64,000 bases of DNA from Sedimentisphaeraceae bacterium JB056 (GTDB lineage Bacteria > Planctomycetota > Phycisphaerae > Sedimentisphaerales > Sedimentisphaeraceae). This document shows, one piece after another, positions 6,001-56,800 of the stretch (within the stretch, counting starts at the first letter, position 1; each line of letters begins with the position of its first letter). Under the pieces are notes generated by a model. The model was not told where the DNA came from and did no database searches. It saw nothing but the letters and a program-made list of their open reading frames with translations. Where the stretch lies: positions 223,235 through 287,234 of the forward strand of contig JBITAJ010000004.1 in NCBI GenBank assembly GCA_044440125.1, given 5' to 3'. A program made the position numbers and the translations under genes.

Positions 6001-6839
6001 AGCTGATTAACTCCTTTAGCATTTATATCATCAGATTTATGTCCGATTTTCTCGTTATATTCAGTTATACCACTCTGACTTAAACACTGCGTAAAAGCAG
6101 AAGGCTTGAACATCTCACTATATTCTGAAAGCAATTTAGCTAATTCAGGAAACTTCTTTTCAATTCTGTCAAACCTGATACAGTTATCAAAATGCTTGGT
6201 TAAATTCTCGTTAACTATTCGATAAGAAATAGCCGTTTGCTGATCTTTATCACTGTAAACATTATCACGGTTTTGATTGAAGCCGGTAAAATAAGTACTG
6301 AACTGGTTAAAATTACTTACATATTTTACTCTGTCCTCAAATTCTTCCTGAGAAATATCCTCATTTTCATATTCTTTTTTAAGCCAATCCCAAAGACGCC
6401 CCTTAGTCTTCTTCGCCCCGCTGCCTGATTCATTGACAAGTTTACTAAATTTACCCTTGTAAAGATGGTAATCCTTGCTTTTTGCAGCAAATGCCTTACC
6501 TATTTTCTGACGCATCTCCTTTTGCCGCCTAACTAACTTGTCTTTCACATCTTTGCCCGCACCGGAAGCCTTAGCCTGACAATATTTATCCGCATAATCT
6601 TCTAATTCCGCTTTGGTGAAAATTTCTTCGCTCAAAACCTCCTCTATAAAAAACCGATGATAATCATCCAATATCCTCTTCATCTGTATATAATCTTGCG
6701 CACGCTGCCTATCTTCAGCAACAATACTCTTTAACCCCTCATTCTTAAAATCCTCAATCCGCTCAGCGGTCTCCCCAACCGCTCGGAGTTCAAAGCGAAG
6801 TGTTTTGCTCAATGAGTAGCAATTTGTAAATTCCTGCAT
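3006..6839 (-). CDS. cas12a: Type V-A CRISPR effector Cas12a (Cpf1)
   Basis: N-terminal EFTNCYSLSKTLRFEL; WED GWDVSKE; PI KMLPKVFF; RNase site NLHTSYW...KLNGQAE; RuvC IGIDRGERHL, VLEDLNFGF, DADANGAYNIARKG. The start is probably the second ATG (6839) because the RBS AAGGAG abuts the ATG at 6845. Confidence 0.98.
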   Translation of the reverse strand: MQEFTNCYSLSKTLRFELRAVGETAERIEDFKNEGLKSIVAEDRQRAQDYIQMKRILDDYHRFFIEEVLSEEIFTKAELEDYADKYCQAKASGAGKDVKDKLVRRQKEMRQKIGKAFAAKSKDYHLYKGKFSKLVNESGSGAKKTKGRLWDWLKKEYENEDISQEEFEDRVKYVSNFNQFSTYFTGFNQNRDNVYSDKDQQTAISYRIVNENLTKHFDNCIRFDRIEKKFPELAKLLSEYSEMFKPSAFTQCLSQSGITEYNEKIGHKSDDINAKGVNQLINEFGQKNHIKARELPKMAILYKQILSDIDSRFIVDKFVDDKEVFNAIKDLHSQLLATELLSTIKNILNEYLTAENSDKIYVKALELTGISNAVWGQWSVVGDALNNYAENYLTLTKKQKEQWDKRDCYSIKEVQEAVDIYLVENEDIETKDICQYFKGFQRDGEEFASLIEQSYQELKPVLELEQLHKDRRIDKEGFKQVEKIRIYLDSLLSVGQFLRPLFMVKGGKKIEIAEVNIDFYDSFNEAYRQLDKCFVIYNKVRNHVTKKPYSTDKFKINFENSTLLDGWDVSKETDNTSVLLFRGGKYYLGIMKKSANKMFDYIASAEDSEKKAKQKQDIANEALADVTDDYFEKMVYKLLPDPSKMLPKVFFSKKNIDFYSPSEELNNIRDNGLFKKDADDIDSLHKWIEFMKVSLSKHPEWSKYFNFDFLPTKDYSDVSSFYKQVANDGYHMSFDKIKASYIESKIASGELYLFEIYSKDFSPYSKGRPNLHTSYWKLLFNQNNLNDLVLKLNGQAEVFFRKASLDKKKNEVVIHRKNEALANKNPLSEKKYSKFDYDIVKDKRFTKDKFFFHCPITLNFKGGIAGKFNDKVNKYVTDNDVKIIGIDRGERHLLYYSLINKEGEIIEQGSLNRITNNLVSGGKKIYKTTDYHQLLDGKEKERDAARKSWTAVENIKELKSGYLSHVVHKIATLMVEHNAVVVLEDLNFGFKRGRFKVEKQVYQKFEKALIDKLNYLVFKDRDFGQAGHYLKAYQFTAPFESFQKLGKQSGFLYYVPAWNTSKIDPVTGFVSLVKVKYESVDKSRNFLSKFDSIKYNSEKDYFEFELDYSKFTDRAADKKVWTICTHGKQRYRYNREERKYNCYDVTGRLKKVLKENNIDYSNGDLIEAITSVCSGKKETAAFYREVMFCLGLTLQLRHSYKENGEEIDFILSPVADANGDFFDSRRCSQDSFLPCDADANGAYNIARKGLLLLDKIRKNGKAEAVSNKDWLDFVQQE

Positions 6840-6936
6840 TTTCATCTCCTTAAATCATTAGTATTAAAAGTATAATATTAAACTCTGCCTCACAAACATC
6901 AAGAAAAAACAATAAATCATCTCCACCTCACGGCGA

Positions 6937-10066: not shown

Positions 10067-11404
10067 TCACTTATCTATTTTGATAACGGCAACCCTGCTA
10101 TTTGCCTCATGGGCAACAGTAAAGACTACTTTACTGCCATCAGGCGTAATATTAGGATGTATGTGACGTGGATGCCTTAAGCCACCCATTATTCTCGCAA
10201 GTTTAATCGTTTTGCCCGAAGGCACATCAAACATAACTAAATCTTCAGGATTATTCTGCTCTACAGATTCACCACGTGTTATCCTTGTAAGAGAATACAT
10301 AGTATCCCAAATTATACGTTTACCATCTCTGCTTACTGCAACATGAACCGGTGATGGAATTACTCCTTCAATAATTTTTTCAACTTTTCCACTGCGAGGA
10401 TCATATCTTGTGATACCTCCATCAATTATCACTTCATCATGAGTAGGTATATCAACAAAATACTTATATTGACCTGCCCATACCTCATGTGTATGAATAA
10501 CACCGGGAGGAGTTATTGTATCCATCTTGACAAGTGAACCGTCAGTCTTTGCTGACCACATTCGAGCACTTTCAACACTTCCGTTAGAAAGTCCAGAATA
10601 ACCATGACAGAAAAACATCTCATCTTTATCTAAAGGATTTATAACCGCATGGGAAAGATTTACGCCATTAGTATCTTTAGGATGGGATACTACTGCCCTA
10701 TTAGTCCATGTAAAGACAACGGAAGGACCATCAAGAATCTCATTTGTTTCAGGGTCAAGATCAATAGAATATACGGCAGTAGTTCTACCGGAAAAAAAAC
10801 TGCCATTTTCCGGACCCGGATGAACAGCAAATACAATAACCCTGCTGCCATCATCTGTTATCGTAGGCGGATCACCAAGAGTACCTATCGCAATATTCCA
10901 AAGTAGCTTTCGCTGCCCATTATCAAGATCAAGCAGATAAAGATTGTGTCCAGTCATATCATAATACACAACAACATTACTCTCCGGCGCATAATCGCTG
11001 TGATATTGAGAGGACATTGAAAGATGATTTTTACCATATTTAACAGTATCCTCAACCTCAATGGATGCAAGCCAATAAATATCACCATTTCCGATATCTG
11101 CTGCAAGAAGCTGTCTCTCGGTGCGATGATAATCAGAATTATCACCCGTAGAAGGCTTCCCGTCAGGACGGGGACGAACAGATTCAAATATCACATATTT
11201 ATCATCTTCTAACCAACCTTTGTTATGCGGATACTGAGCCGAATTAAGATATTTACCATCAGAAAGGTAAACAATTTCTCTACCGGTTTCTGAATCAACC
11301 ACAACCTCCCGTTCATTCGCAATTTTTTCAAAATTATCAGCAAGCTTTGCATTAACGGCAAAATTGAGAACAGTGATACACAGACAAAAAAATCTGATAT
11401 TCAT
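10067..11404 (-). CDS. Secreted oligogalacturonate lyase (PL22)-like beta-propeller
   Basis: Signal peptide; DSETGREIVYLS start; THEVW, VHV and HPRHIHPNITPDG histidine motifs. ATG at 11404 preferred over TTG at 11410. Confidence 0.7.
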   Translation of the reverse strand: MNIRFFCLCITVLNFAVNAKLADNFEKIANEREVVVDSETGREIVYLSDGKYLNSAQYPHNKGWLEDDKYVIFESVRPRPDGKPSTGDNSDYHRTERQLLAADIGNGDIYWLASIEVEDTVKYGKNHLSMSSQYHSDYAPESNVVVYYDMTGHNLYLLDLDNGQRKLLWNIAIGTLGDPPTITDDGSRVIVFAVHPGPENGSFFSGRTTAVYSIDLDPETNEILDGPSVVFTWTNRAVVSHPKDTNGVNLSHAVINPLDKDEMFFCHGYSGLSNGSVESARMWSAKTDGSLVKMDTITPPGVIHTHEVWAGQYKYFVDIPTHDEVIIDGGITRYDPRSGKVEKIIEGVIPSPVHVAVSRDGKRIIWDTMYSLTRITRGESVEQNNPEDLVMFDVPSGKTIKLARIMGGLRHPRHIHPNITPDGSKVVFTVAHEANSRVAVIKIDK

Positions 11405-11448
11405 TTGCAAGAAGTCCTTTTATGTATAATTTATAGAGTTGCAAAATA

Positions 11449-11480
11449 AAGTCTGCCGAAACAAATGCTTCGACAGACTT
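11449..11480 (-). terminator. Intrinsic terminator after the LamG gene
   Basis: Minus strand AAGTCTGTCGAA...TTCGGCAGACTT followed by a T-rich tail. Confidence 0.65.
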
Positions 11481-11493
11481 GAAATAACATCAA

Positions 11494-14421
11494 TTAGTAT
11501 CCCATCCATTCATCTGCTAATATAGAATAGTCATACAGGTCGACCTGACAATCATCGTTAAGATCTGCATTTATAAATCCTGAACAAACAGGAGCTGTTA
11601 TCAATTCTATATTATCAATATCTATAGTACCCGTACCTTCATAGCCAGAGAGCGCATAACATCCCAAAACCAATCCCTGAACATTATCTAACTCAACAGG
11701 AGCATAGCTGGTATAGAGAAGCCTATCAAGATCAACAAGCCAGTTATCCCATTGATCTGCAGGCTCAGAAGTTGAACCCTGCTCATACGTTACTATAGAC
11801 GTAGCAGCTACATTATCAAAAGCAACACCGCCATTCAGGAATTTAACATACATTCCTGTTTGTTTTGCATTACCGGAAGCTCTCTTAACCCACAGGCTGA
11901 GATAATCATAACCACTGACATCTACAGGAGTATCGAGTTCAAACAGAATATCTGTAAATCTGGCTCCGTTACCACTAAAATCGTTAGTATTATACTGCCA
12001 TCTCAATGCTTTGCTTCCTGAATAAGATTCAGCAGAAGTACTAAGCAACGTTGCTGTACTCATAGCTGTCGATCCGATACTTGCAGATTGGCCAAAGTCA
12101 CTCCAATATGTATCAAGTGCGGCCTGATCCGCATAATATTCAAAAGTTCCTTTTTCGAAATCAGTAACAGTCGATGGCTGCTCAATAGTGGAATCAATCC
12201 ATGAACCAGCGAACTGATCAAGGTCATCCCCATCAACATCTGAATCCTGATCTACATCACCAAATACAATAGGCCCACCATTATATATATCATTAACATC
12301 ACTTGGAGAAAGATCTTTGTCGTAGATTCTAAAGTCATCTATTGTACCATCAAACCAGCTGTTGGCGTTGGTTGTATCAAAACCGAGAGTAGCTCCTATC
12401 GTAAGAGCATATGCTCTTGTCATATCACTGTTCTTATAAAGCTTTTTGAAGCCGTCCTGAATACCATTAATATAAACTTCACAACAAACAGATGCTTCTG
12501 TACATTCCCTGATAACAGCAGCAACATGTGTCCACTCTCCAGGTGTTACCTGTCCGACAGTCTGTATAATCTCATTTCCTTCTGTTGTACTTACTCCCTG
12601 TAAACGGACAAGACTGCCGTAAAGATACAAATAATACTTATAGCCGCCTGTCTGTGGTGCTATATTAAATATTTGCTGAAGCCCTGATGTATCATCAGGA
12701 TTTATCCAGCAACTTATAGTTTTATCCTTGAATGGACCGAAAGCAAACTCATTATTTCGATCTTTAAATGTGATACTGTTTGAAATACCATCAAAATCAA
12801 AACATTTACCATAAACGCCATTAACCCATTGAGATGTATTGCCATCATAATTATTCATCACGCCGTAAAGATCATTACCTGATGAATCAGCAATAAGATC
12901 ACTGCCGCCTTCCTGATCCATCTCGTAATACAACTCAAGATCATCTTTAGTTCTAAAAACTCTCTCAGCAGGAACTGTAGCAGCCAAATCAGCTACTTCA
13001 GTGTCAGTAAGTGTTGCATTATAAATCCTGAAATCATCTATCTTGCCATAGAATGCCTGCCTCTGAACCGCTGTCATACTTTTATCAGCAGCACTGCCGC
13101 CAATACTTGGATAATAATGTTTACCAACTTCATCCCTTGTTATACCTGTCTTAGTTACAGCAAGAGTACCATTAACATAAAGTCTGAATTCTGACATACC
13201 ATCAGCCGTATTGGCATTTACAACGGCAAGATGATACCATGTATTGCCATCTATAACCGGTATTTGATACTGTTGATAACCCTCTGTACCTTGAACTCTG
13301 AAATATCCATTCACCATCGCAAGATAAAACTTATACGGCTGATCAGAGCCGTTAATCAAACCAAAAATAAATTGCACAGTATTTCCAACAGGTGAAGTTG
13401 CACCAGTCGGACACACCCATGCTGAAATCGTATTATTCTGGAACTTTCCCAATGCAGTAGTAGCATATGTATCAGGGACTGATGCCAATGCTATGCGGTT
13501 CTCATTACCATCACCATTAAAACATCGCCCAAATTTTCCGTGATTATTCCATGCGGACTCAATACCACTGAAACCTTTGACTTCTCCTCCCATTGTTCCC
13601 TTTTCATCATACGCCCATACAGTTAGACCATCATCCATAGGCATATAAACCAGCAAAGAATCCTCTAAACTGTCTGTAGAAGGTTCATAATCATAAAGTG
13701 CTTCAATCTGCTCCTGAGATAATGCAACATCATAAAAACGCATATCATCAAGCATACCTTTTATAAATTGAGACGAATCAGGATTTTGAGCATTATTTGT
13801 ACCAATTCCCAAATTATCAACAAGACCTGTTTCATCTCTGACCAAACCAGCCATAGAGGTTATCATAACACCATTAACCCAGGCTTCCATTGTAGAGAGT
13901 CCATCTTCTGTATTTCTTGAAAGTAAAATAACATGATACCACTGCTCTGTCTGAAAAACACCAGAGACGCGTTTATCACCGACAATTCCATTCTTGTCAT
14001 CATACTGCATCCTTAACTGTCCATCATAATTCAACAAAGTCGCTTTATAACCTCCCCAGTTATTGCAAAATAAATACTGCACAGAAGAAATATCATTGAA
14101 CTTAACCCACATCGAAACAGTCTTTTCCTGAAAACCGCCAAGATCAGAGATTGTCCATACATCTGAATATGGAGTAGCACAAGCTCTGCCATCAAAATTA
14201 ACCGCATTACCAAATTTCCCATCAACCCACTGGCTTGTATCTGAAGCTTCAAGTCCTAATAATTCGACTCCGATATTGGATACGGAATCAGCTCCGATAA
14301 GTCCGGCTGTTTCATCAAACCTCCAATGAGTTATCAGATTATCCTGAGGATTAAATACCGCAAAAGATATATTACAAACAAATATACATATCCATAAGAT
14401 CAACACATTTCTAATTTTCAT
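11494..14421 (-). CDS. Secreted protein with three LamG-like jellyroll domains, a CBM-like domain and dockerin-like motifs
   Basis: Three repeats of HWRFDE/YMPMDD/YYEMDQ...W(Y/T)H...G(M/K/T)(L/I)DD(M/F)R; two DxDxDxxVDxxD motifs near the C-terminus. Start MKIRN at 14421. Confidence 0.85.
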   Translation of the reverse strand: MKIRNVLILWICIFVCNISFAVFNPQDNLITHWRFDETAGLIGADSVSNIGVELLGLEASDTSQWVDGKFGNAVNFDGRACATPYSDVWTISDLGGFQEKTVSMWVKFNDISSVQYLFCNNWGGYKATLLNYDGQLRMQYDDKNGIVGDKRVSGVFQTEQWYHVILLSRNTEDGLSTMEAWVNGVMITSMAGLVRDETGLVDNLGIGTNNAQNPDSSQFIKGMLDDMRFYDVALSQEQIEALYDYEPSTDSLEDSLLVYMPMDDGLTVWAYDEKGTMGGEVKGFSGIESAWNNHGKFGRCFNGDGNENRIALASVPDTYATTALGKFQNNTISAWVCPTGATSPVGNTVQFIFGLINGSDQPYKFYLAMVNGYFRVQGTEGYQQYQIPVIDGNTWYHLAVVNANTADGMSEFRLYVNGTLAVTKTGITRDEVGKHYYPSIGGSAADKSMTAVQRQAFYGKIDDFRIYNATLTDTEVADLAATVPAERVFRTKDDLELYYEMDQEGGSDLIADSSGNDLYGVMNNYDGNTSQWVNGVYGKCFDFDGISNSITFKDRNNEFAFGPFKDKTISCWINPDDTSGLQQIFNIAPQTGGYKYYLYLYGSLVRLQGVSTTEGNEIIQTVGQVTPGEWTHVAAVIRECTEASVCCEVYINGIQDGFKKLYKNSDMTRAYALTIGATLGFDTTNANSWFDGTIDDFRIYDKDLSPSDVNDIYNGGPIVFGDVDQDSDVDGDDLDQFAGSWIDSTIEQPSTVTDFEKGTFEYYADQAALDTYWSDFGQSASIGSTAMSTATLLSTSAESYSGSKALRWQYNTNDFSGNGARFTDILFELDTPVDVSGYDYLSLWVKRASGNAKQTGMYVKFLNGGVAFDNVAATSIVTYEQGSTSEPADQWDNWLVDLDRLLYTSYAPVELDNVQGLVLGCYALSGYEGTGTIDIDNIELITAPVCSGFINADLNDDCQVDLYDYSILADEWMGY

Positions 14422-14455
14422 TTCAGCATCCTTCAATTAAATTAACATTAAAAAA

Positions 14456-15760
14456 TCACTCTACAGAACACAATGAAATCTTACTCTGAGAATTTTCAAA
14501 ATCACAGTAAACTATCTTCTTACTGTCTCCGGAGACATGAAAATTAATTCTCTTTCCAGATATTCTGCTCTGCCTTGCTGACACTAATGCCTTCTTCTCG
14601 GCAGTAATTGTGTTCAATTCATAAACAACAGTAGAACCTAAATCGTTATCATCATAACTTATAGGCAATATATTATAGATTATATTATCATCAGGTAATA
14701 CAATGAGATTATCCATATTCACTCTATAAGAAGGAAAAGGAATAAAACTAACACTCTTATCTGATTTACTCTTAACCTTTACTCTCTTATCAGTCAATAA
14801 TTTCCGCCATCTTTGATAACCGGTACTATTAATATTAGCTCTCGAAAATCCACCTTCAGCTACAAAATACAGATCATTGCCCTTACACCACAAACCTCCA
14901 ACACTCCCAATTTGGTCAGCAAATCTTCCCATACGTGAGCCATCAGTTAAACAGTATTCCAAACAGTAACTTTCCTGACCATCCATATCAATCTGTTTAT
15001 TTTTAAAAGCCATCCAACTCCCATCAGGAGACAGAAACGGATAACCAAGAGTTTTTGACGCTTGTGATTCATTAGCCTTTATATTAGCAAAACTGTTGGC
15101 AATCTCAATATCACCAACTACCTGCATATTTACAGTATCAATATTAAAGACCATTATAGAATGATTTGTACCATCATAATAGTCAGTATCAGGTCCTCGA
15201 TGAATTGCTTCAATAACAACAACACCGCCATCATCACTTATTGCCGGAGTGCCTATAAAAGTTCCAGCAAATAAATGTAGAAGTTCTATTGTCAGATCAT
15301 CCGTCAACCGCTTAAGATAAAGATGATGCCCTGTAATATCCCGGTATGCCACCAGATCATTTTCTCTGCTGCATGTAAAATGTGCATCAGATGAAATATC
15401 AAAGTGCCCCCAACCGTATATAAATGGATCTTCAACTTCTAAAGATGTTATCCAATACGCATCTCCTGTTAACAAATTAATTGCCGCTATCTGCTTTTCT
15501 CCATTACCGCTTGATTCCCCCTGAGGCCTTGCCATATCCGTTTCAAACAAAACAAATTGTTCATTGCCAATCCATATATTTCTGTCAGGCAAGGGAATTG
15601 TAATATCAGAGGAATTAGTGAACGACAAAACTTCTCTTCCAGTAAGCGGGTCAACAGAAGTAGATGAATCAAAATTAATTTGAATATAATTACCAACAAC
15701 AATATCCGCAGATACTGCTTGCGATAACAAAACTGTAAAGATCAATATTTTATTTATCAT
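14456..15760 (-). CDS. Secreted PL22-like beta-propeller paralog with divergent C-terminus
   Basis: Shares VDPLTGREV, EKQIAAINL.TGDAYWITSLEVED and YRDITGHHLY with its neighbours, but lacks the THExW and HxHP motifs. Confidence 0.65.
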   Translation of the reverse strand: MINKILIFTVLLSQAVSADIVVGNYIQINFDSSTSVDPLTGREVLSFTNSSDITIPLPDRNIWIGNEQFVLFETDMARPQGESSGNGEKQIAAINLLTGDAYWITSLEVEDPFIYGWGHFDISSDAHFTCSRENDLVAYRDITGHHLYLKRLTDDLTIELLHLFAGTFIGTPAISDDGGVVVIEAIHRGPDTDYYDGTNHSIMVFNIDTVNMQVVGDIEIANSFANIKANESQASKTLGYPFLSPDGSWMAFKNKQIDMDGQESYCLEYCLTDGSRMGRFADQIGSVGGLWCKGNDLYFVAEGGFSRANINSTGYQRWRKLLTDKRVKVKSKSDKSVSFIPFPSYRVNMDNLIVLPDDNIIYNILPISYDDNDLGSTVVYELNTITAEKKALVSARQSRISGKRINFHVSGDSKKIVYCDFENSQSKISLCSVE

Positions 15761-15782
15761 ACCTTAAACCATATTCTTTCAA

Positions 15783-17090
15783 TTATTGATCAATATCAAC
15801 TACCACAACCTGACTGTCATCAATACCAACACCAACATTAAAAGCAATCATTTTTCCATCAGGTCTGAGGATTGGGTGAGGATGTCTGGGGTGATTAACA
15901 CCTCCAATTTGACTAGCCACTTGAATAAGTGAAGCTTCCGCCCTGTTATACAACCATATACCAATATTTCTTGTATAATCGTCTATCAAACTGTTAAATG
16001 TATCAAATACAAACAAATTTTCAGCCTTATCCAAACCTATATGAATAATTGCCAGTGAAGTGCTTGAAAATACTTCTTCAAGACCGCCATTCAACACATC
16101 AAGCTTCTGTATACTGCTTCCACTACTTTTAATGCGTACAAAATAACTATATCTATTAGAAAAACCCCACATCTCGTGAGTATCAATGTTTTGTGTGTCT
16201 GTAAGTGATTTTATCAAAGAACCATCAGTCTTACCGTACCAAACACGGCGTTTCTGGACAGAACCATCTGCGGAACCACTGTAACCATGACAGAAAGTCA
16301 TTTGGGACACATCCATTGGATCAATTATTACATGACCAATATTGATTTCGCTATCTTGAGAAATATCAGAACGGTTACTGTAAGAGTATACGAGTTTCGG
16401 CAGTCCTATCGCCTCCCCAGTTTCGGTATTCAATCTAATTTTGTATATTGATGTTGTTTTGCCTGAAAAAAAGCTGCTATCAGTCGGTTTTGCAGAACAG
16501 GCATAAACTAATACAGCCCTTCCGTCCCAACTTATAGATGGCGTATCTCCTAAAGTCGCATACTCAGAATGCCATATTAGATTTCTATTACCTGTATCAA
16601 GATCAAGAGTATAAAGTCTATGGCCTGTCATGTCATAATATACAAGAATATCGGCCCCTGGCGAATAATCTATATGATACTGAGACGACATTGATACATG
16701 ATTAACACCATACTGAGAAATATCTTCAACTTCAATACTTCCAAGCCAATAGATATCTCCATTATTTACATTAACAGCAAGAAGCTGCCTCTCTATAAAA
16801 TGATAATCACCTACAGTATTACCTGTAGAAGGCTGCCCGTCAGGCCGTGGTCTGTCTGACTCTATGAATATATAGTTACCATCATTAGACCATCCTCTAT
16901 TATGAGGATAACAGCTTGTATTCATGTATTGATTATTCGTCAGATAATTTAACTGATAGCCAGTAACAGAATCGACTGCTACCGTTTTTTCATTACCTGC
17001 ATAAGTAAAATTAGATGAAATATCCGCGGTCGACACCTTCAAAAACATCAAAAATGCCAGAAAAATAATCAATCTGATATTATTACTCAA
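15783..17090 (-). CDS. Secreted oligogalacturonate lyase (PL22)-like beta-propeller
   Basis: Signal peptide; close paralog of 10067-11404; THEMW, IHI and HPRHPHPILRPDG motifs. Confidence 0.7.
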   Translation of the reverse strand: MSNNIRLIIFLAFLMFLKVSTADISSNFTYAGNEKTVAVDSVTGYQLNYLTNNQYMNTSCYPHNRGWSNDGNYIFIESDRPRPDGQPSTGNTVGDYHFIERQLLAVNVNNGDIYWLGSIEVEDISQYGVNHVSMSSQYHIDYSPGADILVYYDMTGHRLYTLDLDTGNRNLIWHSEYATLGDTPSISWDGRAVLVYACSAKPTDSSFFSGKTTSIYKIRLNTETGEAIGLPKLVYSYSNRSDISQDSEINIGHVIIDPMDVSQMTFCHGYSGSADGSVQKRRVWYGKTDGSLIKSLTDTQNIDTHEMWGFSNRYSYFVRIKSSGSSIQKLDVLNGGLEEVFSSTSLAIIHIGLDKAENLFVFDTFNSLIDDYTRNIGIWLYNRAEASLIQVASQIGGVNHPRHPHPILRPDGKMIAFNVGVGIDDSQVVVVDIDQ

Positions 17091-17108
17091 TTTGCTTCTC
17101 TTCTTTAA

Positions 17109-17966
17109 TTATTGCCATTGCCAATTGAAAGGATACACAAGACCTCGATAAGGTTGTCCACTGTTATAATCCTCTCCAGGAACGAGGCCATGCCATTCAA
17201 CATGCCCATCAGTAAACCCATAATTGCCGCCATCTTTATGAATAGTAGTCTCATCTTCACTAACAACAGGATTTCCATTAACCAATGCCGTGTGGACAAA
17301 AGGTTTGGCAAATTGAGAAAACCCCGTACTTCCCTGTACTGCTCCGTATTGATCTCCCTGAAAACCAATACCTATGTGAGTTTCACCAAGATGAATAACT
17401 GTTGCCGGATTTTTTACCCTGTAAACACGTGTAGGGACACACGAAAGATCTCCTTTCAGATCAGACCAACTTCGTTCTCCGCCATAGTAATTAGTACCGT
17501 TATAAAAACTCCTGTTGGGACTGTAGGATCTCTTAAACGGCTCACTTCTGGAATCTGTCTGATACAGAATATCGGTAGCAAGTTCACGCCTTTTTCTCGG
17601 TTTTTTGTCAGAAGGACATTCGAGCCATTTTTTAAACACATCTTTCTTATCAGTCCCCATATATTCGGAAAGACTTGAATCCCATGGCCTTCCTACCTGT
17701 TCAACACCGGCAAGATAAGTTACTCCGCCAGTCAAGTTACCCATGCTTTTAGGCCTTATTCCCCTATCCGGCACAAGATAGCCCTTGTTATCAAGTGCAT
17801 ATGTATTGAGTCCCTGTAAAATTTGTTTCTCGTTGCTACCGCATAAAATACGTTTTGCCTGCTCTCTTGCCTTGCCCAAAGCAGGCATCATTATAGCCAT
17901 TAAAACCGCAATTATCGAAATAACCACTAATAATTCTATTAAAGTAAAAGCCTTTTTCACTTTCAT
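17109..17966 (-). CDS. Prepilin-type N-terminal cleavage/methylation protein with H-X9-DG motif (DUF1559-like)
   Basis: [70 protein letters not shown] precedes the ATG at 17966. Confidence 0.93.
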
Positions 17967-18260
17967 AGCAAAACTCTCCGTAAAACAAAAAGTAAATATC
18001 ATTCTATCATATTATGTATTCTAAATCCCAAACGAATAAAAAACCTCATGCAAAAGGAAAAAATTATTCGCATATCCGGCAATAACACTTCTGGATATCA
18101 TAAATTTAGGTTAAAAAAATAAGAAAAAAAGCAAATTAACTGATTAAAGCACCTTTATATAGCTCTGAAATCTTCAATTATATATTTCTCTTAAAAAAAC
18201 AAACGCAAAGTAATAGCTTAGAGATATCTGCTTTATTGAGCTTGGTTTATAAGATTTATA

Positions 18261-30776: not shown

Positions 30777-31646
30777 TCACAATCTTTCTGCAAGCAATTT
30801 TCTGGCGGCATTTATTTCATCTTCTTCAAGCTCAAAATCGCCCTGTCTCGTGCCAATTCCTAATTGCTCAAGTTTAGAATTGCCAAGTGAATGATAAGGA
30901 AGCAGTTCAATCCCCATGCAATTTTCAAGCCTATTGTATATCTTCGCAAGCGCACTGTAATGCTCAATGTTGTCATTATCATTTTTAACAAGAATACATC
31001 GCAATACTGTTACCGCCCCTAAACTGTCAAGCAGCTCAAGATTTCTCATTATCACATCAAGTTCAACACCTGTATTAGCCAAATGCCGGTTACTGTCGGT
31101 ATCTTTAACATCATACAGCCATAGATCAACAAACTCAGCGGCTCTCTGCACATCCTCGCTTTTGGCAAAACCGCATGTTTCTAAACAAACAGTGATATTC
31201 GCTTCTCGGGCAGCCTTAGCAAGCTCTATTGTAAAATCGCTTTGTAATAAAGGCTCACCGCCTGAAATAGTCAGCCCGCCGCATTCATCATAAAAGTCAG
31301 CATCTTTTAGCACTTCGGTCATTACATCTTGAACACTCATCTCCCTTCCGGAAAGTTTTATCGTACCGGAATCGCATACATCCGCGCAGGAAAGACACTC
31401 CCCGCAATCTTCTCTTGCTGAACCGGATAATATGCTTCTTACATCTTCCTTGGGACATACTCGGTCGCAATTACCGCAGTCAATACACATATTGGGAGAA
31501 AACAATAGCTCCGCTGCCATTTTTTTTGATTCTGGATTGTGACACCATCGGCACTTTAACGGGCATCCTTTTAGAAAGACTGTCGTTCTTATGCCAGGGC
31601 CGTCATGCGTGCAAAATCGCTGAATATCAAATACAATACCGTTCAT
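30777..31646 (-). CDS. Glycyl radical enzyme activating enzyme (radical SAM with ferredoxin-like insert)
   Basis: HDGPGIRTTVFLKGCPLKCRWCHNPES; CIDCGNCDRVCP and CGECLSCADVC; SGGEPL; ELLPYH. Confidence 0.96.
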   Translation of the reverse strand: MNGIVFDIQRFCTHDGPGIRTTVFLKGCPLKCRWCHNPESKKMAAELLFSPNMCIDCGNCDRVCPKEDVRSILSGSAREDCGECLSCADVCDSGTIKLSGREMSVQDVMTEVLKDADFYDECGGLTISGGEPLLQSDFTIELAKAAREANITVCLETCGFAKSEDVQRAAEFVDLWLYDVKDTDSNRHLANTGVELDVIMRNLELLDSLGAVTVLRCILVKNDNDNIEHYSALAKIYNRLENCMGIELLPYHSLGNSKLEQLGIGTRQGDFELEEDEINAARKLLAERL

Positions 31647-31669: not shown

Positions 31670-33901
31670 CTAAATTTTCTGCTGCGTTCTGTTGATAATC
31701 ATATCCTGCCACTGCTTATTTAATGTCGCAAACCTTGCCGACCATCCGGCAATTCTGACAGGCAGATTCTGATATTTTTCAGGATGTCTTTGCGCATCGA
31801 TAAGCAAGGCAGTATCAACGACATCCATATGAAGATACCAACCGCCAAGCTTCTGGAAAGTTTTCATAAGAGTCGCCATTGCCAGTTTGCCGTTATCACC
31901 TTTAACACTTGCAGGATGAAGTTTAAGCTCAAGCGTTGCACCACCGGGGCAGCGTGAGAAATCCATCTTGCAGTATGATTTGATAACAGCAGTAGGCCCT
32001 TTCTTATCGCTGTCAGGTGTAGGCGAAAAATTCGTAGCAAGTACATCACCGGAATTATGCCCGGAGAACGTAGCTGACCGGCTGGTACTCCAGCTTATCT
32101 CGCGTCCGAAAGTACTGATACCCGCAGGCATAAATACACCATCAGCTTCTTTCTGAGATGCCACTATTGATGTATAGTCGTTAAACACCTTAACCATCAT
32201 CGCATCAGCCTTCTCATTATCATTACCGTAAGCATCTATCCTGTTAAGCACCAGCCTTCTGAGACTTTCCTGTCCCTGCCAGTTATTGTTTACAATATCA
32301 CAGAATTCCGAAAGTCTAAGCGTTTTCTGCTCATAGACAAGCTCATTAAGCACTGTAAAACTGTTGGCAACATCAGCCATGCCGCCCATATGCGGAGAGT
32401 AAACAGAATATCTGGCACCGCGATTATTATAATCCCTGCCTCTCTCAATACAATCATCGACAAGTATCGAAAGAAGCGGGCAAGGCTGCTTGTTATCTTT
32501 GTCAACCCACCTGTTTCGTGAGATATCAATGTGTTTCTGGTAAACATCTTTAAGCTCATCAGTAAATTTAGCATATAACTGCTCAAAAGAAAGGTCATCA
32601 TCAAGCTTTGTCTTTTGACTTTGCCCAAGAGCTTTCTGCATTACGTCAAGGATATCCATCGGGCGATAAATAAAGGCTGTTTTACCGGGAATAAGAACTT
32701 CCCAACAACCATCATTTGTAAAACCACGAGCCTCTTTTATATCGTAGCCAAATTTAACCAATCCATCAATCACTATCTCTTCATTATAAACAGCAACCAT
32801 TCCACCGCCAAGCCGCTGAACCTCCGCTATCCTTTCAAGCAATCGTTGAGGTGTATTTTTATTAATCCTTACCGCTATAGGAAAATCACTTATATGCAAT
32901 TCTTCAACAATATCCAGCACAAGATAAGTAACATCATTGGTTACATCTTTTCCATTTTCATCAATGCCGCCAAGGATCACATTCTGATAATGCTGCGCAT
33001 CACCGCTTCCGCGACCTGTACATGTAGTCCATTCACAACCAAGTATCCAGAAGTGTGCCAGCATCTCTCTTGCCTGCGGCAAAGTAACTGTGCCATTTTC
33101 AAGATCTTTTTTCAGATACCCGCCAAGCATCTGATCAATCCGACCAAGACCAGACCAGTTACCCATGAGTTTCTGAAAAGCAAATGAGAATCTCAGTGAC
33201 TGAACGGCTTCATGGAAATTCTTCGGCGGATTTTGCGGCACGTTTTCCAATGCCTTATAAACCGATAGATATGTATCTTTTTCGCTGCCTCTGCTTTGAG
33301 ATATTTTTTCCTGTATAGAATCGAGATATCGTTTATGCCATATATCCGCCCCATCCATACAAACAAGCATTGATTTAAGTAAATCCTCACCGCCTGCATC
33401 AAGTCCGCCGCGAGAAAGCCTTTCATTTATCTTTTCCCGCAAACCTTTATAACCAAGCGTTAAAACCTTGTCGAAACCAATAGTCGTATGGCTGACACTG
33501 AATACTTCTCCAAGCAAAGGAACCAAATGCCGGCGTCCTTCATCAAGCGTTGCCGAACCGACAATCAGAGAATTGGGCTTTATCCATACAGGAGCCTTTT
33601 CTGAGACAAGCTTAGCTGCCATAGCGTATTTCATATTCATAGACACAGAATCCGCTTCAGAAGGTAAAGCAAAATCTGCCGGTTTGATCTGCCTGCCCCA
33701 TTGCCCGCTCAAGGCCTGATCCGCAAGAACATGTGTATTATCTGAAAGTCTATTCACCCCACAACCTTCGCTTACTGACAGCCATTGGTTTTCATTACTC
33801 TCTATTTTAGAGAAATCAGCCGCTTTAGCTCTATCAGATTTGATTAAGCTGCCGGCAAAAGTCGTTGTAGACGCTAATTTCACAAAATTTCTTCTGTCCA
33901 T
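31670..33901 (-). CDS. Glycyl radical enzyme (PFL-like family) with a putative Tat signal peptide
   Basis: Gly loop NLPVRIAGWSARF, Cys loop NDGCWEV, GLGRIDQML, YGNDNEKAD. AGAGGA RBS precedes MDRRNFVKLAS...AKA. Confidence 0.93.
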   Translation of the reverse strand: MDRRNFVKLASTTTFAGSLIKSDRAKAADFSKIESNENQWLSVSEGCGVNRLSDNTHVLADQALSGQWGRQIKPADFALPSEADSVSMNMKYAMAAKLVSEKAPVWIKPNSLIVGSATLDEGRRHLVPLLGEVFSVSHTTIGFDKVLTLGYKGLREKINERLSRGGLDAGGEDLLKSMLVCMDGADIWHKRYLDSIQEKISQSRGSEKDTYLSVYKALENVPQNPPKNFHEAVQSLRFSFAFQKLMGNWSGLGRIDQMLGGYLKKDLENGTVTLPQAREMLAHFWILGCEWTTCTGRGSGDAQHYQNVILGGIDENGKDVTNDVTYLVLDIVEELHISDFPIAVRINKNTPQRLLERIAEVQRLGGGMVAVYNEEIVIDGLVKFGYDIKEARGFTNDGCWEVLIPGKTAFIYRPMDILDVMQKALGQSQKTKLDDDLSFEQLYAKFTDELKDVYQKHIDISRNRWVDKDNKQPCPLLSILVDDCIERGRDYNNRGARYSVYSPHMGGMADVANSFTVLNELVYEQKTLRLSEFCDIVNNNWQGQESLRRLVLNRIDAYGNDNEKADAMMVKVFNDYTSIVASQKEADGVFMPAGISTFGREISWSTSRSATFSGHNSGDVLATNFSPTPDSDKKGPTAVIKSYCKMDFSRCPGGATLELKLHPASVKGDNGKLAMATLMKTFQKLGGWYLHMDVVDTALLIDAQRHPEKYQNLPVRIAGWSARFATLNKQWQDMIINRTQQKI

Positions 33902-34074
33902 GACCATTCCTCTTTTATGAATATACAAATTAGTAACCAATATTATACGACTGATTTTAGCATAATCGAAATATTAAAATCTATAAACTTTAAACCGTTT
34001 TTTGGTAGATTTTGCGCAACAGTTTTGATAAAATATCCTTTTCAGCTCAAAAACAACTACAAACTGGCAATCTC

Positions 34075-34899
34075 ATGACAAAACTGACGGACAAAAATAA
34101 GTTTCAGGAAGACTTTCTCAACAAGATGCAGAACAAATACTGCTTCACTGATTTGTTTGATTTTCTCTCCGATATATTCTTTTTTGTGAAGGATAAACAA
34201 AGCAGATTTATCATGGCCAACCGACCATTTTTGGACATTTTAGGTATAGAGAAAGTTGAAGAAATGATTGGCCTGACGGATCATAATTTTTTTCCGCCCA
34301 ATATTGCTGATCGATATTTTGAGGAAGACAGATACGTATTGGAAAACGGCGAAATGACACGTGACAGGTTATGGCTTGTACCAAACAGCGATAACACATT
34401 AAAATGGTATCTATCTACCAAAATGCCGCTTTTCGACAAAAAGGACAACATCATCGGACTTGCCGGCACAATGAAAAACTTCGCCAATGTTGATAAACTT
34501 CCTGAGCCTTACAGGGAAATGTCAGAAGTAGTTCAGCATATAAACGACAACTACAATAAAGACATACAGATTACGGAATTAGCTGACATCGCATCACTGT
34601 CGATCAGTCAGTTTGACAGAAGATTCAAGAAAGTATTCGGCATATCACCGCTCAAATACATTACTAAAACAAGAATAGATGCCGCTTGTATTGCAATAGA
34701 AAAAACAAATCAGACAATAACACAGATAGCTTACAATACAGGGTTCAACGACCATAGCTATTTTACAAAGGTCTTCTTCAAAATCATTGGCAAAACACCC
34801 AAACAATATAGAACGCTGATTCGCAAAAGAGCAAATCAGCATTCGAAACCCAAACAAGACATAATCGTAAACTTACAACAACAATTCATTGCGCTTTGA
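34075..34899 (+). CDS. AraC family regulator with an N-terminal PAS domain
   Basis: FFVKDKQSRFIMAN...IGLTDHNFFP...TKMPLFD (PAS) and SQFDRRFKKVFGISP...GFNDHSYFT (AraC HTH). Divergent from the GRE; ATG at 34075 preferred. Confidence 0.92.
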   Translation: MTKLTDKNKFQEDFLNKMQNKYCFTDLFDFLSDIFFFVKDKQSRFIMANRPFLDILGIEKVEEMIGLTDHNFFPPNIADRYFEEDRYVLENGEMTRDRLWLVPNSDNTLKWYLSTKMPLFDKKDNIIGLAGTMKNFANVDKLPEPYREMSEVVQHINDNYNKDIQITELADIASLSISQFDRRFKKVFGISPLKYITKTRIDAACIAIEKTNQTITQIAYNTGFNDHSYFTKVFFKIIGKTPKQYRTLIRKRANQHSKPKQDIIVNLQQQFIAL

Positions 34900-50811: not shown

Positions 50812-53800
50812 TTACATCGTTGTGTCATCTGTCGTGTCGTCTGTCGTGTCGTCGCCTGAACCACCTCCTGTAACAGAGTTTGCGGGATCATATCCCGGAG
50901 GGTAATAGGTGATACCGTCTATCATGAGTATCCAGTGTATTACATCCTCATAGTTCATCTCAACATAGTTGTAACCGACAGTCACGATTTGCGGCTGCTC
51001 AATAGCAGTGTATGCATTCTCGTTTGTCGCAGAGTCACCACAGATCACTTTCCACTCAAGCATCTTGCCTGGATAAGGACCGACATTAACCTTCCAGATA
51101 ATAGTACTGTTAGAGTTATCATCTGTACCTGTACTTACCTCATAGTAAAGAGGATCAAGTGTCTCGTTAACAACACCGCCCGCATATATCCTTGGGCTTG
51201 AATAAGAACCCTTGGTCAGACATATGAACTGATACCATACCGGTCCGGAAGCATCTTCACTCTCAGTGAGTGCCTCGATTGTCTGCCATGCGTCCTCTTT
51301 ACCACTGAAGAACTGACTTGGTTCATAAACCTGCTCCGCCCTGAATATACAGGATAGAGGGAATGGCTTATCGCTATCTATCACAGAAGCGGCATTAGCC
51401 ATAGCCGAAGCCTCTTCGGACCAAAGTCCTTCATTGTAGTTTCGAGAAGTATCACGTGTCTTGACACGATAAGTGTAAAGCTCACCAACAGCAAGATCGG
51501 TATCTACGTATTCCGGATCACTCTGCCATGTACTGTTGTGGCCATTGCCGCTTGTACACTCGAAGAAGTATTCAACATCGTACGCTTCCGGATCAATCGC
51601 TGTTTTCGCAACCATTCTTATGCTCGCAACGCCGTCTACCACAGATGCTGTCTGAGGAGTAGTCTCCCATTTAGCCTTAGTAGGCTCAACAGATGTTGGA
51701 TCAGTTATTGGTGCCTGTGAATCATCACCTGCTCTGGTTCTTACTGCAAGAGAAGCAAGAGTTGTATTACCATTGCTGTCACGTGCATAGCAAACATAAG
51801 CATACTCATCATCAATGACCAAGCCAGTATCAGTATATGTACGATCGGTTATCCAACCGCTGTCATGACCGTTTCCGAATGTACACTCGAAATAGTACTC
51901 TATAGTGCCGATACAGTTATCAATCACAGTACTGGCTGTCATTGTTATAGCCGGCTCACCGGAACCCGCCGAAACAGGCTTTCTCTCCCAGGTCATGCGT
52001 CTAACCACATCCTCAGAGAAATCACTGTCAACAGTTTCACCATCTTCACCAAGTATCGGCTGAGGTGCGATTTTATCAGTTACCCCTACGGAAGCCATAG
52101 CGGTACTATCAACATAGTTAACAATACCATCCTGATTTATATCCGTACCATGACACCAATATGGATAGTCACACCTATCGAGCCAGTAGTCAAGCCCCCA
52201 AAGAGCCCACTCATTAGGACTTATCACACCATCAAAATTGAAATCACCAGCAAGGCCGGATGTTACCGGCAAGGTGTAGTGATAACCCATATCAACAGTG
52301 TTATTATCAAGTATACTGTCAACCCTTGTGGTATGACGATAAATATTATAATCTCTGGCTTCACCAGCACCAGCATCAATACAAGGGCTGTTAGCATCTT
52401 GACCGGCACTGATTGCACTGAGATAATAGAAATCTTCAACAGCCCATAAAGGATCTGTTGTTATATTAGAGGAAGCAGGATCCCATATATCCATATCAAC
52501 ATTATAGTTTATAGTACTGCTTCCTTCCGTATAAACAGGAGAACCATAACTTATCTGCGGCTCACCTTCTTCAACAGGGAATCTTAGGCGACCAATAGCA
52601 GAACTATTTCTATTTCTCGCTATCAGAGCAGTTGTTGCATTATCAAGGAACGCTCCTTCCACACCTGAACCCTCAAGCTCATAGAATGTTCCAGGTATAC
52701 CTGTTCCCTTAGAGAATCCTACCCTTGCGGTCGTACCGCCAAGCCCATCTGTTCCGCCATCAGCATCACCGGCTTCCCACTGAATCTGATCATAATTGAA
52801 TTCGATATCAAAATCGTTTTCACCTCTATCGGAACGTTCAATAAGAACAAGCTGGAAATTGTTAAGCTTATCCTGTTTCTGATCGTAATATCCAACATTG
52901 ATATAGTTTACAAAGAAAGCATCACAAGTTATTAGTTGTCCATTTTCTTCAATATCCACAGTTCCGCGTCCATAGCTGATAGTGTTGCCGCGACTGGTAT
53001 CAACATCAGCATGGAATGGTGCGATTATAGGAGTCTCCACATTAGTGCTCAGCAAGAATTCACTGAAAGTCGTAACCGGCTCCCAGAAGCTTATGCAGCC
53101 ATTGTCACTGACATAGACTCTATTTGTGGTAAGCCCATAGAAGTTAACGGTAAATCCAAGATCAACGAGGTCTGTTGAAGTATTCGTCAATGCAGGAAGT
53201 TCAAAATAATCTTCCGTTTCATCAACTATGATCTGTCCCTCATCATCACTGTTTATACCCCTTATCGCCACAAGGCCTGTATCAACAAACGGAGGCTCTT
53301 CTTTAAGCGGCTCTATGAGACTATAACGTATATCAGCATTTGAAGGCTCTCCATCATGAGGCTCACAAACCGCTATCTGCGAACCATTAGAGCAAAGATT
53401 GCCGTAAAGAATACTGTTGATTATTGAAACAGTACTTACATCACTGATAAGAATTCCGCCACCTTTACCACCGGCTGCTGTAACCGCGTTATCGGCCACC
53501 GTACAGTTGATAAGCTGTGGATCAGAATGGGTAGCAATATTCATACCACCACCGCCAAGACCGGCATAGTTACCAGCAAGCAAACAGTTGCGAAGATACA
53601 TATTGCTGTAATCGCTAAGAGATTCTACATCATAAAGACTTTTGCCGGAAACATACACAGCACCGCCAAAACCACCTGTCATGTTCTCTCTGAACTTACA
53701 GTCATTAAGTTCTGTCTTGGCACTGTAAGCCGCAATAGCTCCACCATGGCCACTCTTGTCATACTGATCTTCAGATATAGGATCGATCAGATTACCGTCT

Positions 53801-56800
53801 GCATCATAAACTTCCGGAATATCTTCAAGCTGTATTATGGATCTGTTCGCTGTAAAATCTGAACGAACTACCATAGTATAACCTGCCGCAAGATTTACCA
53901 GATCATTCATACCAGGTGAATAATCAAAATCCATATATACTAAAACGTCCCCATTGCTTGACGGAGTAACGTACTCTACTCTTGAGAGGTAACGAATATC
54001 AGAATCATTACCGCCTGCAATTGCTACTGCACCACCAATATCTGATTCATTTTCGACAAATTCACAATCTTCGATAATGACACTTTCTATAGTGTTGTCA
54101 CTATCGATGTATCCTGTATTATCGACACATATGGCACCACCCATTACGGCCTGGTTACCTTCAAAATAGCAACTTACAAACTTAGGCCTTGAGTTTCTCT
54201 GTGCATAAACGGCACCACCATTACTCTGATAGTCATTTGAGTTTACTATAGTACCACCATCAGGATGAGTAGTCGGCACTTCCCAATTTGCAATATTATT
54301 CTTAAACGAACAATCCTCAAAGAGAGGTTTACTCATAGCATCACAGAATACAGCACCGCCGTATGAAGGTACCCTTGTATGATCAGTTGGGGTTCCGGTA
54401 TGATTTGTTATACCAGAAGAACCACTTGTAGCGCTGCAGTTCTCAAAATAACAATTCCTTATCACTGGTTCAGCACCTATACCAATATACATGGCTCCAC
54501 CACGACCGGCATATTGAGACTTTTCTTCCTGTGCAGGATAATAAGGCTTCTTCTCATGCGGCAATACAAATCTGAAACTATTTGCAACACCTTCTACATC
54601 ATCTTCTTCACTAAACCCAGGCAAAGAAGTCGTATGGGCAACATATGGCCACCATAAAGCGGCCGGGTCGCCCCATAATCCAGGCATCGATTGGAGACCT
54701 GGCCCCATGCCGCCATTTCCACCATGACCACCTTCAGCCGAAAGATTAACAAATTCACAATCCTCAAAGAGAGGATTACAGTAGTTATCAATATAAACAC
54801 CGCCGCCAAAACTAATGCCCGGCCAACCGCCATCTCCTTCAGTACTTGAGGCGCCATCACCTCCATTACCAATGCTGTATGTACCATTGATAAGACGACA
54901 GTTTGTTATCGTTGGAGAAGAAACTGTCCATGTCTCGCTAACAGAATCGTAACTTGAGAGAAGTTTCATTATGCATCCGCCACTGCTAGTTGCATGATCA
55001 CCATCCGGATAGGGATTACATGTAGTTCCACCATCACATGCATCAGCTGTACCGTATGTAATGTTCCTCTGATCGAAAGTGATATCTCTGATTATTGTAT
55101 TACGACCAACATTATGAAAAATCAAGATACCATCCCTGATAATCGTAGACTCCGGATTACCTGGGTCACCACCCTGTATAGTAACAGGTTTATCTATGGT
55201 TGTCCAAATAGACGGATCGTCAGGATTAGTATTCTCGGTAAAATGATGCTCACCAGGAAGCAACTGTATCACATCACCATCTTTAACATCAGGATGAAGG
55301 AGGGCCTTACGAAGAGAATCAAACATGCCATCGCCTTGAGGACCTACGGTCCATACCTGCGGCTGATAGAACTCGACATAAACATCCTGATAGTTCTGCA
55401 TTACTGTTACCTGATTCGTTCTCGATAGTGAAGCATCGTCATCTGTACCGTGCCAGCGTATTTTATGCTCTGGTTCATCAGGTATTGCCTCAAGTTGAAC
55501 AACCTCTCCTCTCTGATATGTTTTAACAGGAGATTCTTCACTATTTTGGTATACGGTACCGTTACCTGTAGTGATAACAATACGCAAAGTCGCCTGCGCT
55601 TCACCAAATACAGCATATATCTCATTAACAGTATCAAGTGGCACAACTATTTTATAAGGTATTCCCTCAACACCGTTATCAACATACATCAGCTGACCAT
55701 CAGTATCATAAAGTCCGTAATAATCTCCATCAGGATTATCTTCAGTTATCTCAGTAAGCAGATTACCGGAACTGTCAGTCCATTGGTAGAACATGTAGCC
55801 TGTACTTGCGATAGCCGTAACAGTAACCTGTGAGTGAGGTTTGAAAGGACTCACTGGATCAGTAATAACACTTCCGCCTCTGGCAGGAATAACATTTACA
55901 GTTAATGTCTCTGTCTCGGAATAAGGTGCGTTTGGATCTGTATAATGATAACCTATATCCGCTATGCCTGTATCATAGACTCCATCAGTCCTCATACTTT
56001 TATCGCCAAGATTATAATCATCGGCCAAACCAAGGCCTCCGTCATAACATGGGCTTGTTGCAGAAGTTCCACTTTCTGATGCAACATCTCCATTTGCATC
56101 CAGTACCTGTCCGGCATCAGCGTGACTCAGATAATACGAACCCAGACTACCTTCAAGATACATTGGATCCTCAACAAGGTTATTTGCACTTCCCGGCATT
56201 GAATCTATGGACGCTGCACTCGCCAAACCGATAACACCATCATCAAAAATGGCACCATCAGGATTGTTGTAATACAGACAATTATTGGAAACCAGACTTG
56301 AAAATGCGCCACTCTCATAGATAGCATAGTTGTCAGCGTTAGTGAATATGCTGTTTATAACATCAATGTAATTATTATCATCAACATAGATTCCACTGCC
56401 ATATCTTGATACGTTATTATCTGCAGTAGCATTAATAATCGTCACATAGGAATTGTCCGTCGGTGTTCCATAAAGATAGACAGCACCACCCCACCAGTTT
56501 GAAACATTCTCAGTAATAAGCAAATTATACATATCAACTGTTGAAGAGTGGATGCTTATACCACCACCAAACATTTCAGATCTGTTACCCGTCATTACAG
56601 CATTTGATATCTCAGACGAAGGAGACCCCTTGATAAAAACAGAGCCGCCATCAGCGAAACATTGATTACCGGTAAAATCAGAGTCAACGACCTGAGCAGT
56701 AGAATACTCTACCATCAGGGCACCACCATCACTGCCGGCAATATTTGAAGTAAAATCACTGCCCTCAATCGCCACTGAACCGTTATCTCCTCCACAGAAT

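Follow-up and report, generated by a model that had tools for sequence, protein, structure and literature searches.

The locus and its enzyme

The stretch of DNA analyzed here, called the window throughout, comprises 64,000 nucleotides of contig JBITAJ010000004.1 from Sedimentisphaeraceae bacterium JB056, and we focused on a gene within it that encodes a glycyl radical enzyme (GRE) with an apparent leader for twin-arginine translocation (Tat) at its N-terminus. The gene lies on the reverse strand as a single open frame of 743 codons (the coordinates in Table 1 include the stop codon), and its product (P0001) is 743 aa long. The first residues of the protein are MDRRNFVKLASTTTFAGSLIKSDRAKAAD, and the N-terminus is translated as MDRRNFVKLASTTTFAGSLIKSDRAKA followed by AD, with D-R-R-N-F-V-K at residues 2–8 fitting the S/T-R-R-x-F-L-K Tat motif and A25-K-A27 located at RR+22 to RR+24. 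A first-pass annotation had described the reading frame, its AGAGGA ribosome-binding site (RBS), the RR leader, a DGCWE Cys loop and an RIAGWS Gly loop, and all of these are present in the sequence. The protein is placed in the GRE superfamily by its predicted barrel, its radical domain, the Cys and Gly loops and a cognate activase.

A translation start downstream of the RR motif had been raised as a concern. It seems unlikely, since the conserved core motif starts at residue 51, there is no Met among residues 1 to 89, and the lone GTG in that region (codon 7) has no good RBS. If translation did begin at this GTG the protein would be without its twin arginine, and the codon is indeed there, but AGAGGA lies 6 nt before the ATG with nothing comparable before the GTG, and the RR motif is conserved in the four closest relatives (65–76% identical) and in most of the family. 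Untranslated sequence would not be expected to keep an RR motif, which argues further against a codon 7 start, and we regard it as very improbable. Other possible starts are a TTG at 33940 and an ATG two codons upstream, neither of which has an AGAGGA-like site. A scan for promoters and terminators at the gene was uninformative, with 8 promoter-like sites where 9.7 would be expected, and the TATAAT at 33947..33942 was noticed by eye only. A look-up of sequencing runs listed none with RNA.

Table 1. Features at the GRE locus, in window coordinates.
Feature	Position	Strand	Basis
Glycyl radical enzyme gene	31670..33901	-	Open reading frame, translation, Pfam PFL-like and Gly_radical, AlphaFold2, Foldseek
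Ribosome-binding site AGAGGA	33908..33913	-	Sequence reading; 6 nt 5′ of the ATG at 33901
Tat-type leader (predicted), residues 1–27	33821..33901	-	n-region MDRRNFVK; h-region LASTTTFAGSLI (12 residues); c-region KSDRAKA with A-K-A
Twin-arginine motif R3-R4-N-F-V-K8	33878..33895	-	Sequence; compared with the family consensus
Unconserved linker, residues 28–49	33755..33820	-	Separates the predicted cleavage site from the conserved core motif (R51-L-S)
Cys loop N396-D-G-C399-W-E401 (thiyl-radical Cys; Glu two residues on)	32699..32716	-	Alignment; six residues invariant in 121 sequences
Glycyl radical loop R716-I-A-G719-W-S721	31739..31756	-	R716, G719 and W720 invariant; Pfam Gly_radical
GRE-activating radical SAM enzyme, 289 aa (P0002), no leader	30777..31646	-	TIGR02494, 308 bits against a cut-off of 174
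PAS-AraC regulator, divergent	34012..34899	+	Pfam PAS_4, HTH_18 and HTH_AraC; start codon uncertain

The Pfam domains PFL-like (PF02901; residues 135–598, 330 bits) and Gly_radical (PF01228; residues 623–724, 83 bits) were both matched above cut-off. Homologues were compared in an alignment of 121 sequences, made up of the query and its 120 best hits, in which C399, E401, G719 and some 70 further positions are invariant and the loop G398-C399-W400-E401 aligns with GCVE in HypD. With the family alignment as input, AlphaFold2 gave a model with a mean predicted local distance difference test (pLDDT) score of 89.1 and a predicted template modelling score of 0.90, with the folded core beginning at about residue 50. 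Residues 1–46 are disordered in the model (pLDDT is low, and below 50 for residues 1–42). Foldseek matched the model to solved GREs with TMq values of 0.76–0.83, including 0.80 for both glycerol dehydratase (1r8w) and propanediol/diol dehydratase (5i2g), 0.77 for HypD (6vxc), and, for the anhydrohexitol-phosphate dehydratases, 0.82 for YbiW (8id7) and 0.78 (8id0) or 0.79 (8yjo) for PflD. Identity to these solved enzymes is 20–24%, and known GREs align only from about residue 135 on, leaving residues 50–135 as a family-specific region.

The glycerol dehydratase of Clostridium butyricum, a B12-independent enzyme, and the 1,2-propanediol dehydratase of R. inulinivorans (5i2g/5i2a) have the same ten-stranded GRE barrel, the G-C-x-E Cys loop, the RxxG[FWY] radical loop and a separate radical SAM activase. 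They differ from the window GRE in sequence (23–24% identity, matching from residue 135), and the window GRE is shorter (about 695 mature residues) and carries a Tat-type leader. HypD, the trans-4-hydroxy-L-proline dehydratase, is the best sequence match among the solved structures (280 bits, residues 137–741) and the best NCBIfam equivalog, but at 367 bits the window GRE is far under the equivalog cut-off of 1100 and is not a HypD; HypD is also cytoplasmic and leaderless, unlike the window GRE. All other curated subfamily and equivalog models were likewise below cut-off, including PFL2-3 (374 against 678), CutC (256 against 1050 bits) and sulfopropanediol dehydratase (274 against 1000). Pyruvate formate-lyase was considered and rejected, as DGCWE holds a single Cys rather than adjacent Cys-Cys, and TIGR01255 gave 74 against a cut-off of 994. 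An eliminase-type enzyme, as suggested earlier, agrees with the GCxE loop and with HypD and the diol and glycerol dehydratases as closest solved structures, and the best explanation is a divergent GRE of the Cys-x-Glu type that would work like the known 1,2-eliminases and dehydratases while being a member of none. The family has 2261 proteins at E ≤ 1e-10. An exhaustive representative search found members aligning from about residue 50 at 40–76% identity and all other GREs at 34% at most, so the family is distinct from other GREs; the ESM Atlas gave generic GRE clusters only.

Conservation and distribution of the leader

The first-pass annotation had proposed checking homologues for the RR peptide, and the motif is indeed kept. 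Leaders were called with the rule R[RK]x[FLIVMGW][LIVMFAT] within the first 45 residues and a run of 11 or more uncharged residues after it, and an RR leader is found in 94 of the 121 aligned sequences. Six others have a single-Arg variant, discussed below, and the remaining 21 are 4 fragments and 17 sequences failing the rule. Among these 17, two have RR with an interrupted h-region, two begin inside the h-region, probably as mis-called starts, and the other 13 are leaderless with short N-termini. The consensus of 97 leaders is [N/D/S]RR[D/E]F[L/V/I]K, then an uncharged stretch of about 14 residues in which Ala, Gly and Leu are frequent, and A-x-A at RR+24 to RR+26. K or R occupies +5, a position outside the selecting rule, in 80 of the 97, and A-x-A is present in 65, whereas 500 shuffles averaged 44.7 and never exceeded 57. 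When 60-residue N-termini of relatives were scanned, 27 of 60 matched the Tat model PF10518 at E ≤ 0.05 (4 of them above cut-off), 5 more of the 60 matched the Rieske Tat-signal model alone, and TIGR01409 was above cut-off in 3 of 6 relatives.

The leader was also sought on DNA, and 12 of the 20 genomic loci have it; these come from Bacteroidota, Chthonomonadales and other Armatimonadota, and Hydrogenedentes. Seven loci are leaderless (Spirochaetales, three Armatimonadota-type paralogues, one Armatimonadia and two Firmicutes) and one is truncated at the DNA level. Within JB056 itself, a looser leader rule is satisfied by 93 of 4128 frames of at least 150 aa, real exported proteins included, and since 94 of 121 homologues have an RR leader, the leader of the window GRE is more than chance. 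Taken over the alignment, the RR leader is a trait of the family. The 20–30 residues behind it vary freely while the leader is retained down to about 53% identity, which points to selection acting on the leader itself.

For the phylogeny, 65 of the 121 aligned sequences (window protein included) were used, namely the first ones and then every second, with 4 fragments and 2 ambiguous starts left out. To these were added 14 distant family representatives, 14 locus-derived proteins and 5 general GREs as outgroup; the loci omitted were L018 (truncated), L007 and L015 (near-duplicates) and L005 (missed by ORF calling). A single clade of 76 rows, with a support of 98, holds all 67 leader rows. Outside it are 17 rows, the entire Firmicutes group among them, that are leaderless and start a few residues before the conserved P-x-R-L-S core motif. 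Placed on the tree, the leader label requires at least 8 changes (7 of them forced by well-supported branches) against 22.7 when shuffled, with none of 500 shuffles as low. The window protein sits in an all-leader subclade of 14 rows (support 98), and its 13 companions include the Bacteroidota loci L003 and L006. On this tree the simplest reading would be that the leader was gained once and then lost some times. The gene was absent at E ≤ 1e-100 from 40 genomes of the same family or order, and its distribution is therefore sporadic. One family member outside the alignment, P0123 (875 aa), is leaderless and about 130 residues longer than most.

Activase, neighbouring genes and host genome

The activase gene starts 23 nt after the GRE stop codon. 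It had been noted to be without a signal peptide, and it cannot carry a leader since a stop codon stands immediately 5′ of its ATG at 31646. The same absence was seen in all five activase-like genes of JB056 and in 8 activases from five other genomes with leader-bearing GREs. With the window counted, 6 of 21 loci have an activase adjoining the GRE. In one complete Armatimonadota chromosome, which encodes a single activase, the GRE family is represented by at least three paralogues, two with a leader and one without; these paralogues (L009, L013 and L016) are all far from the activase gene. Locus L024 also belongs to this observation.

It is possible that the GRE is exported without being radical-active outside, either because it was never activated or because the radical is lost, and that it serves as a binding protein or has a non-radical moonlighting role. 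This explanation would fit the absence of re-activation machinery from the periplasm and of a leader from all activases read. However, G719, C399, E401, some 70 more positions and the whole radical loop are invariant across the alignment, and such invariance of catalytic residues implies selection for radical catalysis. Together with the cognate activase adjoining the GRE in the six loci above, this makes an exported but inactive enzyme improbable in our judgement.

Divergent from the GRE gene is a PAS-AraC gene which probably regulates the GRE-activase pair; AraC-type regulators are also found beside family members in L011, L016 and L020. Upstream of the pair are a NagB-like gene and a PIG-L deacetylase gene, and neighbourhood conservation gave no support for linking them to the GRE. 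Across the 20 loci and the window, no gene family besides the activase is common to more than 5 loci, though frequent neighbours include proteins with glycoside hydrolase domains (GH127, GH77, GH130 and GH78), sulfatases, CBM_4_9 proteins, and AraC, PocR and IclR regulators. The neighbouring genes name no substrate. A Laminin_G_3 (LamG) lectin-like domain, of a type that is mostly extracytoplasmic, is inserted after residue 168 in 27 of the 121 rows. Since the eliminase-type site, the LamG insert, the glycoside hydrolase, sulfatase and carbohydrate-binding neighbours, and a sulfatase-rich host all hint in this direction, the substrate is probably glycan-derived, either a glycan or an oligosaccharide. 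A single row of the alignment has a different insert, 200 columns long and placed after residue 76, at a site distinct from that of the LamG insert.

The genome of JB056 (4.54 Mb, 99.8% complete, 41.6% GC) encodes TatC (206 bits) and TatA (54 bits), both above cut-offs, and TatC was found in all five of the other genomes whose GRE bears a leader. About 37 strict RRxF[LIVM]K leaders are present in JB056, mostly on sulfatases and also on a NiFe hydrogenase small subunit and Gfo/Idh/MocA-type enzymes, and the hydrogenase small-subunit leader, MRLSRREFLKLASATG..., resembles that of the GRE. Many of the RR leaders have a lipobox-like Cys right after the h-region, and one Gfo/Idh/MocA-type enzyme with an RR leader weakly matches the BT_2158 glycoside 3-dehydrogenase family. 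The genome is unusually rich in GREs, with four further GRE genes and four further activase-like genes (C21, C29), all of them leaderless. The median Cys count is 8 in leader rows and 10 in leaderless rows of the family, a small difference between non-independent rows that we did not use as evidence.

Some GREs carry N-terminal encapsulation peptides, and those acting on choline and propanediol are found in bacterial microcompartments, so the N-terminal peptide of the window GRE could in principle be a microcompartment signal; the AlphaFold2 model has a short, low-confidence helix at residues 3–12 that would agree with this. The peptide fits the Tat consensus rather than an amphipathic helix, though, and the shell domain PF00936 was not found anywhere in the 99.8% complete genome while the controls matched. 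With no shell gene in the genome we rejected microcompartment targeting, which we see as having the slimmest chance of any explanation considered.

Elsewhere in the window, a type V-A CRISPR-Cas locus occupies 1837–2851 and 3006–6845 on the reverse strand. It encodes a 1278-aa Cas12a (Cpf1) with the Pfam RuvC_1, NUC, REC1, REC2 and PI domains beside an array of 16 repeats with a spacing of about 65 nt, and no cas1, cas2 or cas4 was seen between array and Cas12a. A run of secreted-looking genes at 10067–18002 (reverse strand) includes an oligogalacturonate-lyase-like protein, a 979-aa protein with three Laminin_G_3 domains, two unannotated proteins of about 434 aa and a prepilin-type N-methylation protein. 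At 50812–58986 (reverse strand) a 2724-aa open reading frame with a signal-like N-terminus adjoins a 1186-aa secretin-domain protein at 59120–62683.

Proposed export of a glycyl radical enzyme

GREs carry out difficult anaerobic chemistry, cleaving C-C, C-N, C-O and C-S bonds, and to our knowledge they are taken as strictly intracellular because a SAM-dependent activase installs the radical and oxygen destroys it. We favour, with some reserve, a reading in which the window GRE is activated in the cytoplasm, exported in folded form via Tat, and acts as an eliminase-type GRE in the periplasm; the intact catalytic motifs, the GRE fold, the conserved leader, the leaderless activases and the Tat machinery are shown by the data, and its export, cleavage, radical survival and substrate are inferred. 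In this scheme, the enzyme would fold in the cytoplasm, where the leaderless activase encoded next to it would use S-adenosylmethionine (SAM) to place the radical on G719. The folded, pre-activated GRE would then cross the inner membrane through TatA/TatC, the leader would be cleaved after A-K-A, and the enzyme, with no further activation, could turn over many times in an anoxic periplasm; its substrate would not be imported and would most likely be a glycan or oligosaccharide. Activation would be confined to the cytoplasm and to folded enzyme because it needs SAM, reductant and a leaderless iron-sulfur activase. As the radical could be installed on, and retained in, a folded barrel only, Tat and not Sec would be required. 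Tat is the only general pathway for moving folded proteins, a fact that would account for the Tat-type leaders of the clade.

Several points weigh against export. We know of no GRE from outside the cytoplasm or a microcompartment, and an exported GRE could not be recharged, since SAM, reduced flavodoxin and the activase remain in the cytoplasm. The products of the nearby NagB-like and PIG-L genes look cytoplasmic, and no conserved periplasmic partner or transporter was found nearby, with neighbourhoods varying among the 20 loci and the window. The phylogeny was built with FastTree only, from 98 rows with the leader columns removed, and nine leaderless rows lie inside its leader clade. Three of these (L013, L014 and L017) were verified on DNA, and a periplasmic location is therefore not needed for the chemistry; the remaining six come from databases, with starts taken as annotated. 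The single-Arg variant SR[G/A][E/D]F[L/I]K replaces the twin arginine in 6 of the 121 sequences. The h-region of the window leader is just 12 residues long with 5 of them Ser or Thr, PF10518 had no match to this leader at E ≤ 0.05, and TIGR01409 scored it 12.6 bits, under the cut-off of 16.7. As to the single-Arg homologues themselves (P0058, P0073, P0100, P0102, P0114 and P0119), they read SRGEFLK or SRAEFLK and keep the h-region, and the four present in the tree form one clade beside Bacteroidota copies.

The low model scores were set against other leaders of the same genome. We scored 12 RRxF[LIVM]K leaders of JB056, chiefly from sulfatase-like proteins along with the NiFe hydrogenase small subunit and the BT_2158-type glycoside 3-dehydrogenase, using TIGR01409. 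Six passed, two scored 13.8–14.2 and four gave nothing, and because half of these leaders are also below cut-off, the curated Tat models are insensitive in this genome. The length of the window h-region is within the range of these other leaders, and its mean Kyte-Doolittle hydrophobicity of 1.2 is at the low end of their range yet inside it. For both of these reasons the window leader is low-scoring but not aberrant for this organism. The Tat-export proposal of the first-pass annotation thus stands in part: the RR leader is conserved and the activases are leaderless, while the window leader itself falls below PF10518 and TIGR01409.

The main rival to export is that the leader is vestigial or does not export, with the RR peptide binding a chaperone or the membrane and the protein being an ordinary cytoplasmic GRE. 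NarG offers a precedent, an enzyme that acts on the cytoplasmic side although it carries a twin-arginine peptide. A leader under both curated cut-offs is compatible with this, leaderless paralogues and basal members indicate that the enzyme works without one, the activase and the NagB-like and PIG-L neighbours look cytoplasmic, and all characterized GREs are cytoplasmic. However, the family keeps a three-part export signal, with its uncharged h-region and A-x-A, across sequences that are 53–57% identical, and a remnant that binds a chaperone would need neither an h-region nor A-x-A. Unlike the NarG remnant, the GRE leader keeps both of these and has a disordered linker behind it. No TorD-, DmsD- or NarJ-type gene was seen beside the GRE in the scanned loci, and none of the monoderm (Firmicutes) copies examined has the leader. 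We consider a non-exporting leader unlikely on balance, while giving it more weight than any other rival.

The proposed route of cytoplasmic activation and folded export has parallels among known Tat cargo. The NiFe hydrogenase small subunit, TorA and DmsA share the S/T-R-R-x-F-L-K leader type with the GRE, and the logic is alike in that maturation takes place only in the cytoplasm and is followed by folded export. These proteins carry metal cofactors, whereas the matured feature of the GRE would be a protein-based radical, for which we know of no reported precedent in Tat transport. A second parallel is found in anaerobic sulfatases matured by anSME, which receive a radical SAM modification in the cytoplasm before export, and sulfatases are the cargo class that bears most of the RR leaders in JB056. 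The formylglycine of sulfatases is a stable covalent modification, in contrast to a glycyl radical, which is reactive and oxygen-sensitive and would have to survive transport.

Full-text literature searches, with subscription literature partly outside their scope, returned no paper on a Tat-leader or periplasmic GRE; PMC9324843, a recurring match, has GREs only in its reference list in the portion available. The window GRE would then be a member of a known enzyme superfamily with an unreported localisation signal. If a large clade spanning several phyla is Tat-exported, a protein radical can survive membrane transport, and GREs would form a new class of Tat cargo in which the cytoplasmic maturation step is radical installation. 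It would also mean that anaerobic polysaccharide degraders have radical chemistry outside the cytoplasm. More speculatively, and on balance doubtfully, the enzyme could process glycans in the periplasm by radical-based 1,2-elimination on polymer-bound or oligomeric sugars, for example by removing a sulfate, ether or glycosyl group beside a hydroxyl, with the LamG-insert subfamily as the polymer-binding form. If true, such an enzyme would stand beside oxidative polysaccharide cleavage as its oxygen-free counterpart, and would offer an alternative to sulfatases and glycosidases.

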